From the NCBI RefSeq assembly GCF_024223415.1, contig NZ_CP100500.1: DNA of 64,000 bases. One strand, written 5' to 3'. The position numbers and the translations under genes are program-made. The DNA comes from Escherichia coli. Lineage in GTDB: Bacteria; Pseudomonadota; Gammaproteobacteria; Enterobacterales; Enterobacteriaceae. Positions 1-8,496 of the stretch are shown here, one piece after another. Positions within the stretch are counted from its first letter, which is position 1. Each line of letters begins with the position of its first letter. The notes beneath the pieces were generated by a model. The model was not told where the DNA came from and searched no databases. It saw only the letters and a program-made list of their open reading frames with translations.

Positions 1-301
1 TGCATGGCGCAGTACGCCGGAAGAACTGGCTGCACGGATTGCGCGTGGTGACAGCAAGCTGGAAAAATATGAAGACCAGGCAGGCTTCAGCAAAGTTGCG
101 ACCCTGCAAGATATTAAAGATAACGACTACGTGCTGACGCCGGGCCGCTATGTGGGTGCAGCCGAGCAGGAAGAGGACGGCGTGGCATTTGAGACAAAAA
201 TGCGGGAGTTGTCGAAGACGTTGTTTGAGCAGATGAAGCAGGCGGAAGAACTGGATTGTGCGATTCGCCAGAATCTGGAGGCGCTGGGTTATGGGGAGTA
301 A
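1..301 (+). CDS. hsdM: Type I restriction-modification methyltransferase subunit HsdM, C-terminal 99 codons only (5' end lies upstream of window)
   Basis: Open frame from window edge to TAA at 299-301; translation ...IKDNDYVLTPGRYVGAAEQEEDGVAFE... resembles HsdM C-terminal region; immediately followed by an overlapping hsdS start. Confidence 0.75.
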   Translation, partial: AWRSTPEELAARIARGDSKLEKYEDQAGFSKVATLQDIKDNDYVLTPGRYVGAAEQEEDGVAFETKMRELSKTLFEQMKQAEELDCAIRQNLEALGYGE

Positions 302-1604
302 TGCTATTACAACAATAATTGGTGAACACTTGCTGATTAGAAATGGCAAATCTTCGCCATCAAGAGCCATAACAGGAGAATATCCTGTTTATGGTTCAAA
401 TGGAATAATAGGTTATTCAGATGAATATAACGCTAATGAAAATACAATAATTATCGGGCGTGTTGGGTCATATTGTGGTTCAGTTTATATTTCCGATAAA
501 AAATGTTGGGTCACTGATAATGCAATAATTGGAACCGCAAAGAATGAAAATGAAAGTCATTTTTGGTTCTATCTTTTAAAAAAAATAGATTTGAACAATT
601 ATAGTACTGGTTCAGGCCAACCTCTCATTAACCAAACAATAATTAATACAATATCCGTTACCATTCCTAAGCTCAGTGAGAAAAGAGTAGCCATTGGACA
701 TTTTTTACGCCACTTTGATCAAAAGATAAATTTATCTCTTAATATCAATCAATCCTTGGAACAAATGTCCCAAACCTTGTTCAAATCCTGGTTTGTGGAT
801 TTCGATCCGGTGATTGATAACGCGCTGGACGCGGGAAACCCAATCCCGGAAGCGATGCAATCTCGCGCAGAACTGCGTCAAAAAGTACGTAATAGTGCAG
901 ATTTTAAACCGCTTCTAGCGGAAATCCGCTCGCTTTTCCCAAGTGAATTTGAAGAAACCGAACCAGGATGGTTACCTAAGGGCTGGAAACATGGTAATTT
1001 AAATGATGTCACGAAGATCTTAAGTGGGTTTGCTTTTAAGAGTAAAGACTTTGGTGATGAAGGTAAAAGTGTCATAAAAATAAAGAACATTAATATCGAT
1101 AAAACAATTGATATAGATCATACTCAAAAAATTTCTGATATCGTAGCCAAAGACGTAAAGCGTTTTCAATTATTTGATGCCGATATTTTGATGGCTATGA
1201 CTGGTGCCACGGTCGGTAAATTTGGAATATTAGCATCAAAAAATCATGAAGAATATTATCTTAACCAACGAGTTGCGAAGTTTGAAACAGATAAAAAAGC
1301 TTACCTTTATTGTATATTGAATCAAGAAAGTACCGAAAGATTTATAATCAATACAGCTCAGGGCAGTGCACAACCAAATATCAGTGCTAAAGATATTTTA
1401 AGTATTCCACTCACACTACCATCAAACGAAATAATAACTATATTCAATACATTTGTTGATCCTTTATTCTACAGAATGATAGCGAATACAAAAGTTAGTT
1501 TAAGTCTAACAGAACTCCGCGACACCTTGCTCCCAAAACTCATCTCCGGCGAGCTCTCCCTGGAAGATCTTCCGGATCTCAGCACCAATACAGAAGCCGC
1601 ATAA
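291..1604 (+). CDS. hsdS: Type I R-M specificity subunit HsdS (two AT-rich target-recognition domains flanking a conserved central region)
   Basis: ORF track 258..1604; ATG at 291 overlaps the hsdM stop (preferred start, 258 is an alternative). Central conserved segment LFKSWFVDFDPV and C-terminal LPKLISGEL repeat typical of HsdS; TRD-like AT-rich blocks on both sides. Confidence 0.8.
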   Translation: MGSNAITTIIGEHLLIRNGKSSPSRAITGEYPVYGSNGIIGYSDEYNANENTIIIGRVGSYCGSVYISDKKCWVTDNAIIGTAKNENESHFWFYLLKKIDLNNYSTGSGQPLINQTIINTISVTIPKLSEKRVAIGHFLRHFDQKINLSLNINQSLEQMSQTLFKSWFVDFDPVIDNALDAGNPIPEAMQSRAELRQKVRNSADFKPLLAEIRSLFPSEFEETEPGWLPKGWKHGNLNDVTKILSGFAFKSKDFGDEGKSVIKIKNINIDKTIDIDHTQKISDIVAKDVKRFQLFDADILMAMTGATVGKFGILASKNHEEYYLNQRVAKFETDKKAYLYCILNQESTERFIINTAQGSAQPNISAKDILSIPLTLPSNEIITIFNTFVDPLFYRMIANTKVSLSLTELRDTLLPKLISGELSLEDLPDLSTNTEAA

Positions 1605-1612
1605 CGCATTTT

Positions 1613-1637
1613 GCCCCTGTAAAATCAGGGGCTTTCT
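1613..1637 (+). terminator. Stem-loop GCCCCTG-TAAAAT-CAGGGGC followed by TTTCT, immediately after hsdS stop
   Basis: Perfect 7-bp inverted repeat with 6-nt loop and short T-run seen directly in sequence; would separate hsdMS from hsdR transcription. Confidence 0.4.
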
Positions 1638-1698
1638 GGTAAGGTTTTCTACTGATACGGGAATGCTTACCAGAAATTAGCCAGGGTTGGAGCGCGAT

Positions 1699-4600
1699 AT
1701 GAGTCTCTCTTTCAGTGAAGCAAAATTAGAACAAGCGATCATTGAACTGCTGCAGGATCAGGGATATCAACACCTGATCGGCGATAATGTCCCACGTTCA
1801 AGTCTCGATCAGGTCATCATCGAAGACGATCTCCGTCATTATTTAGCGGCACGCTACCAGCCTGATGGCATTACTGAAGAAGAGATTCAACGGCTGATCA
1901 AACAGTTCACCACGCTTCCGGCCTCCGACCTTTATGAAAGCAACAAAACATTTTGTCGCTGGCTGGCAAATGGTTTTCTGTTCAAACGCGACGATCGGCA
2001 ACAAAAAGATCTCTATATTGAATTGCTCGACACCCGGCATCTACCCGCCGCACTGCGCCAGATATTTGACACCGACGATGTCCCGTTGCAACAGGCGGCG
2101 GAACTCCCGCCTTCCTATATTAATCCGCCGCTTAACCGGATTAAGATTGTTAACCAGCTTAAAATCTCCGGTAAAGATAATCAGACTCGTATTCCTGACG
2201 GCATTCTCTATATCAACGGTCTGCCACTGGTCGTCTTTGAATTTAAAAGTGCGGTGCGCGAGCAAGAAGCCAGTATTGGCGATGCCTGGAAGCAGCTCTG
2301 TAAACGCTATCGCCGGGATATTCCGCAACTGTTTATCTACAACGCGCTCTGCGTTATCAGCGATGGCGTAAATAACCGGATGGGCAACCTGTTTGCGCCC
2401 TATGAATACTTTTACTCATGGCGCAAAGTCACCGGTAATGAAAACCGTGAACAGGACGGAATTCCATCATTGCACTCAATGATTCAGGGGCTGTTTCATC
2501 CGGTACGTCTGCTGGACGTGATTAAAAACTTTATCTGCTTCCCGGATAAAGCCAAGCACGAAGTAAAAATTTGCTGCCGATATCCGCAGTACTATGCCGC
2601 CCGCAAACTCTATTACAGCATCAAGCAAGCGCGTAAACCTTTCGGTAGCGGTAAAGGCGGCACCTACTTTGGCGCAACGGGCTGTGGCAAAAGTTACACC
2701 ATGCAATTTTTAACGCGTCTTTTGATGAAGAGCGTGGAGTTTGCCAGCCCGACCATTGTTTTGATCACCGACCGCACCGATCTGGACGATCAGCTTTCTG
2801 CGCAAATGTGCAACGCCAAAAATTACATTGGCGACGACACCATCGTTCCTGTTACCAGCCGTGAAGATTTGCGTAATCAACTGGCGGGACGCAATAGTGG
2901 CGGTGTATTCCTGACAACGATCCATAAATTCACCGAAGACACCGAACTCCTTTCTGAACGCAGCAATATCATTTGCATCTCGGACGAAGCACATCGCAGC
3001 CAGGTTAACCTCGACCAGAAAGTCATCGTCGATAAAGAAAGCGGAAAAGTGCGCAAAACTTATGGCTTTGCGAAATACCTGCACGATTCACTGCCAAACG
3101 CCACCTATGTTGGCTTTACCGGCACACCGATTGACGCGACGCTCGATGTCTTCGGTGAGGTGATCGACAGTTACACCATGACCGAATCCGTTCAGGATGA
3201 AATCACTGTACGCATCGTGTACGAAGGCCGTGCGGCTAAAGTGATCCTGGACTCCAGTAAACTGGAAGAAGTTGAAAAGTATTACGAAGAGTGCGCAAAC
3301 GCAGGCACCAATGAGTGGCAAATCGACGAAAGCAAAAAAGCCACCGCAACCATGAATGCGGTACTGGGTGATGAAGATCGGTTAAAAGCCCTCGCGGAAG
3401 ATTTTGCCAAACATTATGAAAAACGCGTAGACGAAGGTTCCACCGTAAAAGGCAAAGCCATGTTTGTTTGTGCCAGCCGTGAAATTGCCTGGGATTTCTA
3501 CCGTCAGCTTAAAGCTATTCGCCCTGCCTGGTTTGAAGTGAAGCAAGCACCCGATGGCGTCGTCCTGACGGAACAGGAGCAGAAAGAGTTACCGCCTTCA
3601 GAAATGGTGAAGATGGTCATGACGCGCGGTAAAGATGACGACGAGGCGCTTTATGATTTACTGGGCACAAAAGAATATCGTAAAGAGCTGGATAAACAGT
3701 TTAAAAACGCTAAATCGAATTTCAAAATTGCCATTGTTGTTGATATGTGGCTGACCGGTTTCGACGTCCCGGAACTGGATACCATCTATATTGATAAACC
3801 CTTACAAAAACATAATCTTATCCAGACCATTTCTCGCGTTAACCGTAAACTGGAAGGCAAAAGTAAAGGGTTAGTGGTGGACTACATCGGCATTAAAAGT
3901 CAGATGAACCAGGCACTGGCAATGTATTCCCGCATTGATGCCACCAACTTTGAAGATATTCAGCAATCGGTAATAGAAGTTAAAAACCATCTCGATTTGT
4001 TGGGGCAAGTCTTTTACGAATTTGACAGTCGGGATTATTTTAGTGGTGAGCCACAAGCGCAATTATCCTGCCTCAACCGCGCGGCGGAATTTGTTCTGCG
4101 TACCCAGAAAGTTGAACGTCGTTTTATGGGACTGGTTAAACGCATGAAAGCCGCCTACGACGTCTGCTGCGGCAGCGAAGCATTATCACAGACAGAACGT
4201 GACTATATTCACTATTATCTTGCTGTTCGTTCAATTGTTTTCAAACTGACGAAAGGTGACGCACCGGATGTCACCCAGATGAATGCACGCGTTCGTGAAA
4301 TGATTGCAGAAGCGTTAAAAGCTGATGGCGTAGAAGAGATTTATTTTCTTGGCGATAAAAAAGCGGAATCCATCGATATTTTTGACGAAGATTATCTGGC
4401 ACGAATTAACAAGATCAAACTTCCGGCAACGAAGATCCAGTTATTACAAAAATTACTGGAAAAAGCGATCAGCGACTTCAAGAAAGTGAACCAGTTGCAA
4501 GGGATTAACTTCACCCGCCGCTTCCAGGCAATTATAGATCGTTATAATGAGCGGCGAGAAGATGATGTACTCAACGGTGAAGAATTCGATACATTCAGTC

Positions 4601-4962
4601 AGGAAATGACCGATATTATCTATGATATTAAAACCGAAATGGGCACCTGGGCCGATTTAGGCATTGATATTGAAGAAAAAGCGTTTTTCGACATTCTTGC
4701 TCATATGCGCGATAAATATCAGTTCACCTATGACGATGAAAAAATGCTGTCACTGGCAAAAGAGATGAAAAGCGTGGTTGACAACACATCGAAATATCCT
4801 GACTGGAGTAAACGTGATGATATTAAAGCGAAACTGAAAGTTGAACTTATTCTGCTTCTACACAAGCATAAGTTCCCGCCAGTAGCGAATGATGATGTTT
4901 ATATGGGTGTGCTGGCACAGGCAGAGAATTTTAAAGAACACCATATGAGTGCTTTAAATTAA
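1699..4962 (+). CDS. hsdR: Type I restriction enzyme R subunit HsdR (PD-(D/E)xK nuclease plus SF2 helicase motor)
   Basis: ORF track 1687..4962 (TTG); ATG at 1699 with GGAG 7 nt upstream preferred. Motifs: nuclease LPLVVFEFK, helicase motif I GATGCGKS, motif II ISDEAHRSQ, motif III FTGTPID. About 1087 aa. Confidence 0.85.
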   Translation: MSLSFSEAKLEQAIIELLQDQGYQHLIGDNVPRSSLDQVIIEDDLRHYLAARYQPDGITEEEIQRLIKQFTTLPASDLYESNKTFCRWLANGFLFKRDDRQQKDLYIELLDTRHLPAALRQIFDTDDVPLQQAAELPPSYINPPLNRIKIVNQLKISGKDNQTRIPDGILYINGLPLVVFEFKSAVREQEASIGDAWKQLCKRYRRDIPQLFIYNALCVISDGVNNRMGNLFAPYEYFYSWRKVTGNENREQDGIPSLHSMIQGLFHPVRLLDVIKNFICFPDKAKHEVKICCRYPQYYAARKLYYSIKQARKPFGSGKGGTYFGATGCGKSYTMQFLTRLLMKSVEFASPTIVLITDRTDLDDQLSAQMCNAKNYIGDDTIVPVTSREDLRNQLAGRNSGGVFLTTIHKFTEDTELLSERSNIICISDEAHRSQVNLDQKVIVDKESGKVRKTYGFAKYLHDSLPNATYVGFTGTPIDATLDVFGEVIDSYTMTESVQDEITVRIVYEGRAAKVILDSSKLEEVEKYYEECANAGTNEWQIDESKKATATMNAVLGDEDRLKALAEDFAKHYEKRVDEGSTVKGKAMFVCASREIAWDFYRQLKAIRPAWFEVKQAPDGVVLTEQEQKELPPSEMVKMVMTRGKDDDEALYDLLGTKEYRKELDKQFKNAKSNFKIAIVVDMWLTGFDVPELDTIYIDKPLQKHNLIQTISRVNRKLEGKSKGLVVDYIGIKSQMNQALAMYSRIDATNFEDIQQSVIEVKNHLDLLGQVFYEFDSRDYFSGEPQAQLSCLNRAAEFVLRTQKVERRFMGLVKRMKAAYDVCCGSEALSQTERDYIHYYLAVRSIVFKLTKGDAPDVTQMNARVREMIAEALKADGVEEIYFLGDKKAESIDIFDEDYLARINKIKLPATKIQLLQKLLEKAISDFKKVNQLQGINFTRRFQAIIDRYNERREDDVLNGEEFDTFSQEMTDIIYDIKTEMGTWADLGIDIEEKAFFDILAHMRDKYQFTYDDEKMLSLAKEMKSVVDNTSKYPDWSKRDDIKAKLKVELILLLHKHKFPPVANDDVYMGVLAQAENFKEHHMSALN

Positions 4963-4969
4963 TTATGAA

Positions 4970-4995
4970 GGCCGGATACACTTTGTTATCCGGCC
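4970..4995 (+). terminator. Perfect palindrome GGCCGGATA-CACTTTGT-TATCCGGCC downstream of hsdR (terminator or REP-like hairpin)
   Basis: 9-bp inverted repeat with 8-nt loop seen in sequence 8 nt after hsdR stop; no strong T-run, so function uncertain. Confidence 0.35.
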
Positions 4996-5083
4996 ATTCT
5001 GAATTAACGTTAATTTCTCTTCCAGATCTTTCCAGTAACGCTTTTATTATTTTCTATTTTTAGCTGGACTATCCCTGTATTTA

Positions 5084-5099
5084 CTGATGATATATCCAG
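5084..5099 (+). promoter_or_regulatory. Putative LexA (SOS) box CTGATGATATATCCAG upstream of symE
   Basis: Matches CTG-N10-CAG architecture with AT-rich centre; symE is a known SOS-induced gene in K-12. Confidence 0.4.
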
Positions 5100-5103
5100 G
5101 TAT

Positions 5104-5181
5104 TTAGCGCGGTGCGGATGTGCGCCAACACACCCGCACCGCTCATCACAATCACTATTTTCAAGGAATAGCAGTTATGAC
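5104..5181 (-). ncRNA. symR: SymR antisense sRNA (antitoxin of type I TA pair symER); coordinates approximate
   Basis: By position only: region antisense to symE 5' UTR and start codon, includes inverted repeat GCGGTGCGG...CCGCACCGC (5108-5142). Ends not determinable from sequence. Confidence 0.35.
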
Positions 5182-5515
5182 TGACACGCATTCTATTGCA
5201 CAACCGTTCGAAGCAGAAGTCTCCCCGGCAAATAACCGCCAATTAACCGTGAGTTATGCGAGTCGCTACCCGGATTACAGCCGTATTCCCGCCATCACTC
5301 TGAAAGGTCAGTGGCTGGAAGCCGCCGGTTTTGCTACCGGCACGGCGGTAGATGTCAAAGTGATGGACGGCTGTATTGTCCTCACCGCCCAACCACCCGC
5401 CGCCGAAGAGAGCGAACTGATGCAGTCGCTACGCCAGGTGTGCAAACTGTCGGCACGTAAACAAAAGCAGGTGCAGGAGTTTATTGGGGTGATTAGTAGC
5501 AAAACGCCACGCTAA
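5177..5515 (+). CDS. symE: SymE, SOS-induced toxin-like protein (type I toxin-antitoxin)
   Basis: ORF track 5120..5515; internal ATG at 5177 preceded by AGGAA gives the 112-aa product [15 protein letters not shown]... matching my recollection of K-12 SymE. Confidence 0.85.
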
Positions 5516-5523
5516 GTTTCTCT

Positions 5524-5546
5524 CCCCTTCCCCATACGTGAAGGGG
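5524..5546. terminator. Hairpin CCCCTTC-(9 nt)-GAAGGGG between convergent symE and yjiS
   Basis: 7-bp inverted repeat seen in sequence between two convergent stop codons; no clear U-run on either strand. Confidence 0.3.
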
Positions 5547-5557
5547 AATTGCCCCCA

Positions 5558-5722
5558 TCACTCCACATCCTCCTTGCGTAACCCAATATCCCTCAACCGT
5601 TCATCACTCATTTGCTGTAACACTCGTCGGGTCTGCATTTGTCGCCGCCAACGCCTCACCGCCTGCCAGAGTTGCACAAGTCTGATAAACGGCGTTTTGG
5701 CTTTGTTTTCGTGAAATTCCAT
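5558..5722 (-). CDS. yjiS: Small DUF1127-family protein YjiS (54 aa)
   Basis: Hand-translated minus-strand ORF MEFHENKAKTPFIRLVQLWQAVRRWRRQMQTRRVLQQMSDERLRDIGLRKEDVE; below the ORF-track length cutoff; matches recalled K-12 YjiS. Confidence 0.75.
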   Translation of the reverse strand: MEFHENKAKTPFIRLVQLWQAVRRWRRQMQTRRVLQQMSDERLRDIGLRKEDVE

Positions 5723-5898
5723 CTGCTGCCTCCTCATCTTTCAGAGGCTTCATCATCCGCCTTCTGGCAGTTCACAATACAGATGCAAATATTAGTTTTA
5801 TTTAACATACAGACAGGTTAAAACAGCATCTGCATCCGGTTTTTTAGCCTCATCTGTACCGGTTTTTCTCTCTGTATGGTCTAAATAAGGAATACAGC

Positions 5899-7311
5899 AT
5901 GACGCGTTATCAACATCTGGCAACTCTGCTTGCCGAGCGGATTGAGCAAGGGCTGTATCGTCACGGGGAGAAATTGCCGTCGGTGCGCAGCTTAAGTCAG
6001 GAGCACGGCGTCAGCATCAGCACCGTGCAGCAGGCGTATCAGACGCTGGAGACGATGAAGCTCATCACTCCGCAGCCGCGTTCGGGGTATTTTGTCGCAC
6101 AACGTAAAGCCCAGCCGCCAGTGCCGCCGATGACGCGTCCGGTGCAGCGCCCGGTGGAAATTACCCAGTGGGATCAGGTACTGGATATGCTGGAGGCGCA
6201 TAGCGACAGTTCCATTGTTCCGTTAAGCAAAAGCACGCCGGATGTCGAAACGCCCAGCCTGAAACCACTCTGGCGGGAGCTAAGCCGGGTGGTACAGCAT
6301 AATCTGCAAACCGTTCTCGGTTATGACTTGCTAGCCGGTCAGCGGGTATTGCGCGAGCAGGTTGCCCGCCTGATGCTCGACAGCGGCTCGGTGGTCACCG
6401 CCGATGACATCATTATCACCAGCGGCTGCCATAACTCGATGTCGCTGGCGTTAATGGCGGTGTGTAAACCGGGCGATATTGTCGCGGTCGAATCCCCCTG
6501 TTATTACGGTTCGATGCAGATGCTGCGCGGCATGGGTGTGAAAGTGATTGAAATCCCAACCGATCCAGAAACTGGCATCAGCGTTGAAGCGCTGGAACTG
6601 GCGCTGGAACAGTGGCCGATTAAAGGCATCATTCTGGTGCCAAACTGTAATAATCCGCTGGGATTTATTATGCCGGACGCGCGCAAACGGGCCGTTCTCT
6701 CTCTCGCTCAGCGTCATGATATTGTGATTTTTGAAGATGATGTCTACGGCGAACTGGCAACGGAGTATCCGCGCCCGCGGACCATTCATTCCTGGGATAT
6801 CGACGGGCGAGTGCTGTTGTGCAGCTCGTTCAGTAAAAGTATTGCTCCAGGCCTGCGGGTGGGTTGGGTCGCACCGGGGCGCTATCACGATAAACTGCTG
6901 CATATGAAATACGCCATCAGCAGCTTTAATGTACCGTCCACGCAAATGGCGGCGGCAACGTTTGTGCTGGAAGGTCACTATCATCGCCATATCCGGCGGA
7001 TGCGGCAGATCTATCAGCGCAATTTGGCGCTTTATACCTGCTGGATACGGGAATATTTTCCCTGCGAAATCTGTATTACGCGCCCGAAAGGCGGATTTTT
7101 ACTGTGGATCGAATTGCCTGAACAGGTCGATATGGTCTGCGTCGCGCGGCAGCTATACCGCATGAAAATCCAGGTGGCGGCAGGCTCGATTTTCTCGGCT
7201 TCCGGCAAATACCGTAATTGTCTACGTATCAACTGCGCTTTGCCGCTCAACGAAACCTATCGCGAAGCACTGAAGCAAATTGGCGAGGCCGTGTATCGGG
7301 CAATGGAATAA
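5899..7311 (+). CDS. yjiR: MocR-type transcriptional regulator (GntR HTH fused to aminotransferase-like domain)
   Basis: 470-aa ORF; N-terminal GntR-type HTH (LPSVRSLSQEHGVSISTVQQAY) and class I aminotransferase-like C-terminal domain. Confidence 0.9.
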   Translation: MTRYQHLATLLAERIEQGLYRHGEKLPSVRSLSQEHGVSISTVQQAYQTLETMKLITPQPRSGYFVAQRKAQPPVPPMTRPVQRPVEITQWDQVLDMLEAHSDSSIVPLSKSTPDVETPSLKPLWRELSRVVQHNLQTVLGYDLLAGQRVLREQVARLMLDSGSVVTADDIIITSGCHNSMSLALMAVCKPGDIVAVESPCYYGSMQMLRGMGVKVIEIPTDPETGISVEALELALEQWPIKGIILVPNCNNPLGFIMPDARKRAVLSLAQRHDIVIFEDDVYGELATEYPRPRTIHSWDIDGRVLLCSSFSKSIAPGLRVGWVAPGRYHDKLLHMKYAISSFNVPSTQMAAATFVLEGHYHRHIRRMRQIYQRNLALYTCWIREYFPCEICITRPKGGFLLWIELPEQVDMVCVARQLYRMKIQVAAGSIFSASGKYRNCLRINCALPLNETYREALKQIGEAVYRAME

Positions 7312-7551: not shown

Positions 7552-8496
7552 TTAGTACTCGATCCATGGATCGCGCTTGCTTTCAGGCAAGGGTTGCTCT
7601 AATGCCTGCATTTGCTCTGCCGAAAGTCCAGTATATCGTTGTATCCATTCAGGATCCGCACCGTTCTGCAAAAGCAATCTAAGGAGGCGTTGTTCCCCTT
7701 CTTCTTTCCCCTTTTCCATCCCTAACAGCCATCCATCATTATGAATTCGCTCTGCAATCGTCATTATTCGCTCCCTGTGTTGTGGCATTCGACTGGTTAG
7801 TTCGCTGATAAACTCTTTAAAACTCGCTTCATCGCCAGCCAGTAAAATGTAATTTAACAGCGCGGTTATCTGGCTGTCATTAGCGCACCCTGTAACCAGT
7901 AATACTGCCAGTTGATCAATAAGCCCCATTAGATCGCGCTGGCGAATATGCTTTTGGATCAACTCCAACAGGGCGACTCTGCGGTGCTGCACAATCTCGT
8001 CGTCTGGCACGACAGTGATATCCACCAGCGGGAACGCGGCATTATAAAGTTTCCGTGCGGTAGTCGGGTCGGCAAATTCGTCCAGCCAGCACAGGGACCA
8101 GGGGTAAGGACTACGGCTACCGTGATAAAACAGCATCGGGATGACCAGCGGTAGCTGCCGGCGTTTATCATGCTCGATATGGCGCTGCATCACCGCCATG
8201 GAATAGCGCATCAGGCGAAAGGCCATATGAATATCCTCACGGCTCTGATGTTCAATCACCACATAAATATAGCCATCGCCTTCGCGGGTCTTTACCGACC
8301 ACAGAATATCGGAATGTAGCGCCCGCAATTTTTCATCGACAAAGCTGGCGGATTCCAGTTTTAAGCTGTCGAGATCGCACAGTTCCCGTAAATCTTTAGG
8401 TAAGTGGATCTCCATAAAATCCCGCGCGGTGTCAGGGTGCATGAGAAAGGATTTAAATAATGCGTCATGCGGCGTGCTGGTCGTGAAGTTTGTCAT
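7552..8496 (-). CDS. rpnD: Rpn-family recombination-promoting nuclease (YhgA-like), intact 314 aa
   Basis: 314-aa ORF with YhgA-like N-terminal nuclease region ([23 protein letters not shown]); position corresponds to K-12 yjiP/yjiQ. Confidence 0.8.

Follow-up and report, generated by a model that had tools for sequence, protein, structure and literature searches.

In the Escherichia coli genome studied here, a symE gene lies directly between hsdR, which encodes the restriction subunit of a type I system, and the small gene yjiS. This raises the question whether it is the symE/symR locus known from strain K-12, with its antisense RNA and its SOS control, and how its close spacing to yjiS should be read. 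The window is the whole stretch of DNA that was analysed, 64,000 nucleotides in length, and all positions given below refer to it.

We consider it very likely that the window carries the chromosomal symE/SymR locus known from the immigration control region of E. coli, and that this locus works, by analogy, as the K-12 locus does. Every feature of the symER family that can be tested by sequence was found, and the locus reads as a regular member of that family. symE/SymR, its LexA operator and the arrangement seen here are already known, and they are ordinary.

Layout of the locus and its neighbours

The coordinates of all features are collected in Table 1. In K-12, symE is also named yjiW (b4347), and symR is also named ryjC (b4625). 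The symE product matches all 54 positions of the PF08845 profile with 76.6 bits, where the cut-off is 29. It also matches NF010128, the NCBIfam equivalog model for SymE, with 222.7 bits against 132, covering positions 1-110 of 113. The gene is intact.

Table 1. Features of the symE locus and the genes on either side, in window positions.
Feature	Position	Strand	Basis
hsdR, type I restriction subunit HsdR, 1091 aa	1687..4962	+	PF04313, PF18766, PF22679, PF11867; TIGR00348 hsdR, 469.7 bits
GC-rich 9-bp hairpin GGCCGGATA...TATCCGGCC	4970..4995	+	RNAfold, -21.1 kcal/mol for 4960-5012
Conserved block CTGGACTT, inferred -35 element (TGGACT) of the symE promoter	5063..5070	+	Alignment
LexA box TACTGATGATATATCCAGGT, core CTG-N10-CAG at 5084-5099	5082..5101		Likeness to K-12 and conservation
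SymR antisense RNA, 77 nt	5106..5182	-	Rfam RF01809
symE Shine-Dalgarno sequence AAGGA	5163..5167	+	Sequence reading
symE coding sequence, 112 aa, AbrB/MazE-fold product	5177..5515	+	PF08845, NF010128
symR promoter -10, TAGAAT on the minus strand	5190..5195	-	Within symE codons 5-7
Spacer hairpin, 8 bp, between the symE and yjiS stop codons	5523..5547		Folding
yjiS, 54-aa DUF1127 protein	5558..5722	-	PF06568, 46.9 bits against a cut-off of 23.3
yjiR, GntR/MocR-type regulator with aminotransferase domain	5899..7311	+	PF00392, PF00155, RefSeq annotation

The first-pass annotation of this DNA placed hsdR next to symE and a tiny convergent yjiS on the other side, and both neighbours were confirmed. 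hsdR is the last gene of an hsdM-hsdS-hsdR cassette and the left-hand neighbour of symE, with a 214-nt spacer (4963-5176) from its end to the symE ATG. The GC-rich hairpin just past the hsdR stop codon is a possible hsdR terminator, albeit one without a T run, and a terminator scan of 4900-5950 did not call it. The single terminator-like site found by that scan lies inside symE (5311-5325), and one such site is about the number expected from shuffled sequence.

On the right-hand side, the yjiS product is 91% identical to YjiS of K-12, and a candidate ribosome-binding site, GGAGG, is read 6 nt 5' of the ATG at 5722. symE and yjiS are convergent and their stop codons are separated by 42 nt (5516-5557). 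This spacer contains the 8-bp hairpin, with folding energies of -13.4 kcal/mol (plus strand) and -18.8 kcal/mol (minus strand). It was considered as a bidirectional terminator and rejected, with z-scores of only -1.8/-1.5 and no U run. Beyond yjiS lies yjiR, a right-hand framework gene of the region. Rfam snoRNA matches at 5720-5761 and 6573-6642 were all far under their gathering scores and were treated as chance.

A near-identical strain, SCU-316, shares 99.9% identity over 961 bp and 99.97% over 9 kb. Its RefSeq annotation covers the symE locus, and the hsdR and yjiS genes are annotated there too. For wider comparison, 56 symE loci were taken from species-representative genomes, with SymE identity down to 54%, and 55 of them had enough upstream DNA. 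They come from Escherichia, Citrobacter, Salmonella, Klebsiella/Raoultella, Kluyvera, Pantoea, Kosakonia, Chimaeribacter and others.

SymR and the activity of SymE

The Rfam model for SymR is matched over its full length (model positions 1-77 of 77) with 91.7 bits against a gathering score of 61 and an E-value of 7e-18. SymR is complementary to the symE leader (71 nt), the Shine-Dalgarno sequence, the start codon and 3 further nt, that is, from -72 to +6 relative to the symE ATG. The Rfam model also found SymR in 16 of 17 sampled other loci, always at -72 to +6.

SymR folds into two hairpins with -39.3 kcal/mol (z = -6.1), and none of 200 shuffled sequences was equally stable. The symE Shine-Dalgarno sequence sits opposite the loop and the 3' arm of hairpin 1. 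Hairpin 2 has a 15-bp stem at 5109-5142, which accounts for the stable inverted repeat noticed earlier in the antisense region. The sense strand of the same region folds 10 kcal/mol worse, with -29.3 kcal/mol. The SymR structure is rich in G-U pairs, and the sense-strand equivalents of these are A-C mismatches. The stronger fold of the SymR strand fits selection acting on the antisense RNA.

Covariation in an alignment of 50 SymR sequences agrees with this structure. Standard pairs are formed in 96.6% of cells; in controls with the partners shifted by 1-3 columns, the share falls to 27-51%. Compensatory changes were seen in 12 of the 29 pairs, nine of them in the 15-pair hairpin 2, and the covariation score was reached by none of 500 shuffles. 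In hairpin 1, the loop that faces the ribosome-binding site of symE is hypervariable, with 32 different sequences among the 50.

The -10 element of the symR promoter, which reads CATTCT on the plus strand, is identical to that of K-12. A mutation from CATTCT to CACTCC abolished SymR in K-12 (Kawano 2007). Either ATTCTA or ATTGTA is kept at this position in about 53 of the 56 loci. In the window sequence, no U run follows the SymR 3' end.

The activity of SymE is disputed. In the study of Kawano 2007, overproduction of SymE led to growth inhibition, reduced protein synthesis and RNA degradation, and SymE co-purified with ribosomes. On this evidence SymE would be an endoribonuclease toxin that cleaves cellular RNAs after SOS induction, and SymR would be a classical type I antitoxin. 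The name "endoribonuclease SymE" is still used by NCBIfam and in RefSeq. However, in the summary given by PMC11894785, the later work of Thompson 2022 saw no endoribonuclease activity and describes instead non-specific, genome-wide DNA binding and compaction of the nucleoid. The K-12 RefSeq record now reads "nucleoid-associated protein SymE", and the fold of SymE is that of the DNA-binding antitoxin MazE. We favour, with some reserve, the reading of SymE as a DNA-binding protein, and regard an endoribonuclease as less likely.

It should be noted that the first-pass annotation called the locus a toxin-antitoxin module. The identity of both parts stands on PF08845, NF010128 and RF01809. The toxin label follows Kawano 2007, and the later work, in the summary given by PMC11894785, makes SymE a nucleoid-condensing DNA binder and not an RNase.

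The symE-yjiS junction in the immigration control region

According to secondary descriptions, the immigration control region is a replaceable cassette of restriction genes with yjiS and yjiA at its borders. The window contains the yjiS/yjiR side, and the yjiA side falls before its first position. Upstream in strain SCU-316, an 8-kb stretch carries hsdM, a gene for a restriction endonuclease and brnTA, and no yjiA. The gene order in K-12 is yjiR, yjiS, yjiT, yjiV', mcrC, mcrB, symE/symR, hsdS, hsdM, hsdR and mrr. Approximately 7.6 kb, holding yjiT, yjiV', mcrC and mcrB, lie between yjiS and symE there, and the earlier statement that mcrBC and further genes separate these elements in K-12 is thus correct.

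A query running from the 3' part of hsdR through symE and yjiS to the 5' part of yjiR was covered to at least 80% in 916 of 5426 complete E. coli genomes, about one in six. The symER block was present in 2872 genomes of this set. Genomes with other neighbours match only positions 5046-5494 of the window and the yjiS side from about 5546 on. From these alignments, symER is a conserved block of approximately 449 bp (5046-5494) with a replaceable defence slot on each side. In other genomes the right-hand slot carries GmrSD, TIR-domain, C5-methylase, helicase/MZB, AAA_5/HNH and DndB genes. Here the right-hand slot is empty, so that symE abuts yjiS, and the left-hand slot holds a type I system in M-S-R order, so that symE abuts hsdR. 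The right-hand breakpoint lies inside symE (5494), which explains why SymE and its K-12 counterpart differ in their last 6-7 residues.

symE, yjiS and yjiR are also contiguous in two Citrobacter species. In one of these, Citrobacter sp. FP75, the alignment with the window is unbroken through the junction and a homologous spacer hairpin is present. Its SymE ends in SAKTRRQK, which is similar to SSKTPR in the window.

Because it is shared by 916 E. coli genomes and by Citrobacter, we suggest that the compact symE-yjiS state is probably a common and old empty cargo slot and not a compaction specific to this strain. The direct adjacency of symE and yjiS, which had been pointed out before, is real, but it does not set this strain apart.

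The junction could also have arisen if this lineage had recently lost mcrBC/yjiTV-like cargo by deletion, from a slot that was not ancestrally empty. A deletion or recombination end-point could yield the pattern at 5494, where the homology to K-12 stops inside symE and the last 6-7 codons differ, and the slot bears cargo in many relatives. We consider such a deletion unlikely, given the contiguous symE-yjiS-yjiR order in the E. coli and Citrobacter genomes above and the unbroken alignment, homologous hairpin and related SymE C-terminus of Citrobacter sp. FP75. The old empty slot is the reading we retain.

The association of symE with restriction-modification systems was already noted by Kawano 2007. 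In 20 of the 55 species-representative loci, the nearest upstream ORF is a co-oriented type I hsd gene, encoding HsdS in 16 loci and HsdR in 4. A tblastn comparison showed that the Hsd proteins among symE loci vary widely in similarity. Most of this association is accounted for by the shared synteny of a single hot spot. It may be speculated, with little expectation that it is true, that symER is a homology anchor for cassette exchange, that SymE is functionally coupled to the adjacent type I enzyme, or both. If so, SOS-induced SymE coating the DNA could shield the unmodified or damaged chromosome from self-restriction (restriction alleviation).

Probable SOS control and comparison with known systems

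A putative LexA box about 80 nt upstream of symE had been proposed from the sequence. It turned out to be the published site with one A-to-C change. The symE ATG starts approximately 78 nt beyond the end of the 20-mer TACTGATGATATATCCAGGT. The K-12 yjiW/symE LexA site (TACTGATGATATATACAGGT) differs from it by one base just before CAG, with TATATA-CAG in K-12 and TATATC-CAG here. The K-12 site is reported to be LexA-bound and damage-inducible (Fernandez De Henestrosa 2000, as cited by Kawano 2007), and induction by mitomycin C was shown by Kawano 2007 itself.

Compared with the LexA consensus TACTG(TA)5CAGTA, taken from PMC6590174, TACTGATGATATATCCAGGT is the best core-intact site in the window, with agreement at 14 of 20 positions. 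The bare motif CTG-N10-CAG was counted 21 times in the 64-kb window, against 12.3 expected. By consensus match alone the box is not significant, as 39 of 200 shuffled windows hold a site at least as good, and conservation was therefore relied on instead.

The box proved to be conserved. A core-intact CTG-N10-CAG lies upstream of symE in 50 of the 55 loci, mostly starting 93-101 nt upstream of the ATG, and 120-141 nt upstream in five loci. CTG and CAG are invariant in the core-intact boxes, whereas the inner ten bases differ between lineages. Of the remaining loci, three show a single mismatch in the core, and in one the upstream region has been replaced. The motif gains its significance from its position and its conservation.

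The single base that differs from K-12 was followed with an exact 35-mer in the 5426 complete E. coli genomes. The C variant was found in 1976 genomes and the A variant of K-12 in 437. The C variant is thus the commonest box allele in E. coli, and the K-12 form is in the minority. The C variant is also present in E. whittamii and E. albertii. Several validated LexA boxes contain CCAG half-sites. That the motif is a chance match, or was inactivated by the A-to-C change so that symE here is without SOS control, is highly improbable given these half-sites, the allele counts and the conservation of the core across Enterobacterales, despite the imperfect consensus match, the equally good sites in shuffled windows and the recurrence of the bare motif in the window.

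Upstream of the box, the block CTGGACTT is near-invariant in 47 aligned upstream regions and stands at a fixed distance of 14-15 nt before the box. We infer that TGGACT within this block is the -35 element of the symE promoter; at this distance, the -10 element would fall inside the LexA box. A simple sigma-70 promoter scan of 4900-5950 returned no promoter for symE or symR; it is regarded as uninformative and not as negative evidence. As a separate observation, several weak hexamers lie inside or just past the box and are candidates for the symE -10.

The identity, position, integrity and conservation of the sequence elements were established in the window, and their activities are taken from K-12. 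By this analogy, LexA on 5082-5101, overlapping or abutting the symE promoter, would keep symE off until DNA damage triggers cleavage of LexA. SymR, a stable RNA of two hairpins, would be made constitutively from a promoter inside symE codons 5-12. By pairing with the entire 5' UTR of symE, in which the Shine-Dalgarno sequence lies, and with the AUG, it would block translation and lower the level of the mRNA. Lon protease would further limit any SymE that is made. In K-12, SymR cuts translation more than sevenfold and mRNA about threefold, and repression of SymE by LexA, SymR and Lon is additive (Kawano 2007). The effect of SymE overproduction on growth would be due to non-specific DNA binding and condensation of the nucleoid, according to the most recent evidence as summarised in PMC11894785.

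Beyond a correct annotation, the locus has little to add, being a textbook SOS-regulated antisense RNA locus in a common arrangement. Four small facts are added. The K-12 allele of the LexA box is the minority one among E. coli genomes. Across Enterobacterales, conservation extends to the LexA box, the promoter of symR and the hairpins of SymR. The SymR loop that faces the ribosome-binding site of symE is hypervariable. Finally, symER is a fixed block between two swappable slots for defence genes, of which the right one is empty here.

Alignment to symER of K-12 shows the same elements in the same order and spacing, with the LexA box, SymR over the 5' UTR, Shine-Dalgarno sequence and AUG, and the symR promoter within symE. 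The SymE proteins are 91% identical and differ in their last 6-7 residues, SSKTPR here and AGKQKVA in K-12. SymR aligns end to end, with 77 nt in both and 8 differing positions, 6 of them in the hairpin 1 loop that faces the Shine-Dalgarno sequence of symE. Hairpin 2 is fully paired here, whereas it has an A-C mismatch in K-12. The neighbours of symE are hsdR and yjiS here, and hsdS and mcrB in K-12. On sequence comparison, we take all these differences, in the box base, the hairpin 1 loop, the paired hairpin 2, the C-terminus and the neighbours, to be allelic.

As to the immigration control region, the framework genes yjiS and yjiR are shared, and a type I hsd cassette occupies the variable part here too. 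The cassette is in M-S-R order, and its HsdR is only about 24-26% identical to HsdR of EcoKI. There is no mcrBC or other cargo between symE and yjiS.

A further comparison is with tisB/istR-1, another SOS-controlled type I locus of E. coli. Both loci have a LexA-repressed toxin gene with translation held by a small RNA (Kawano 2007). IstR is encoded beside its target and is not an overlapping cis-antisense RNA, whereas SymR is an overlapping antisense RNA. TisB is a membrane peptide of 29 aa; SymE, at 112 aa, is a soluble protein with an AbrB fold.

Rarity of the symER allele and a mosaic symE in E. albertii

The symER allele of the window is rare in E. coli. Among 5426 complete E. coli genomes, only 8 carry a block (5046-5494) with at least 99% identity to it, and most E. 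coli copies are 90-96% identical. On the yjiS side, by contrast, the framework reaches 97-98% identity to the window.

Escherichia albertii NBRC 107761 (locus L020) shares hsdR with the window at 99% amino acid identity. Between L020 3754-4400 and window 4930-5515, identity is 98% in the hsdR-symE spacer and 92% in the region comprising promoter, box and SymR, drops to just 77% over symE positions 5183-5410, and returns to 96% in the final 84 nt of the symE block that both share. The SymE proteins are 73% identical. This alignment shows a mosaic symE allele in E. albertii, and the uneven identity suggests either recombination within symE or locally accelerated divergence.

The final 6-7 codons of symE fall outside the conserved block and vary with the right-hand neighbour. 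The protein ends in SSKTPR in the window, in AGKQKVA in K-12, E. whittamii and E. albertii, and in SAKTRRQK in Citrobacter FP75. A role in tetramer contacts has been proposed for the C-terminal helices of SymE (PMC11894785).

Two metagenome-assembled genomes labelled Bacillota bacterium (L007 and L008) also contain symE loci, 93-94% identical to that of the window. The L007 contig encodes an EcoKI-like hsdM (97%) and the L008 contig a yjiS (98%). Both appear to be Escherichia contigs that contaminate the bins.

Features of the window discussed in this section
Feature	Coordinates	Strand	Description
Type I restriction-modification cassette	258-4962		order hsdM-hsdS-hsdR
SymR 3' end	5100-5106	-	…CCGCGCU, then AAAUACC
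SymR hairpin-1 loop	5158-5165		opposite the symE SD
Final symE codons	5495-5515		6-7 codons
Recombination-promoting nuclease, Rpn/YhgA-like	7552-8496	-	intact, 314 aa, PF04754

Hairpin-1 loop and 3' end of SymR

The hairpin-1 loop of SymR is hypervariable: 50 loci show 32 different sequences for it. The adjoining 5-bp stem (CUAUU/AAUAG) is invariant. Several genomes hold two symER copies, e.g. the pairs L022/L030 and L018/L033 of the species-representative symE loci. Divergence of the loop could allow such paralogous SymR RNAs to avoid cross-reaction.

No U run follows the 3' end of SymR in the window, and the strong hairpin 2 is thus not a canonical intrinsic terminator. SymR of K-12 likewise lacks a U run at its 3' end.

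Neighbouring genes and spacers

In Citrobacter sp. Res13-Sevr-PEB04-36 (L028 4340-4470) the symE-yjiS spacer holds an inserted REP/BIME-like palindromic element, replacing the short spacer hairpin that the window shares with Citrobacter FP75.

HsdR of the window is 1091 aa long, carries a HindI-like domain (PF11867) at its C-terminus, and is also found in E. albertii (99%) and Citrobacter sp. On2M (92%). Its identity to the HsdR of EcoKI is about 24-26%, and in the PDB the HsdR of EcoR124I is only a distant relative (E 2e-24). The position of the intact Rpn gene is occupied in K-12 by the rpnD pseudogene.
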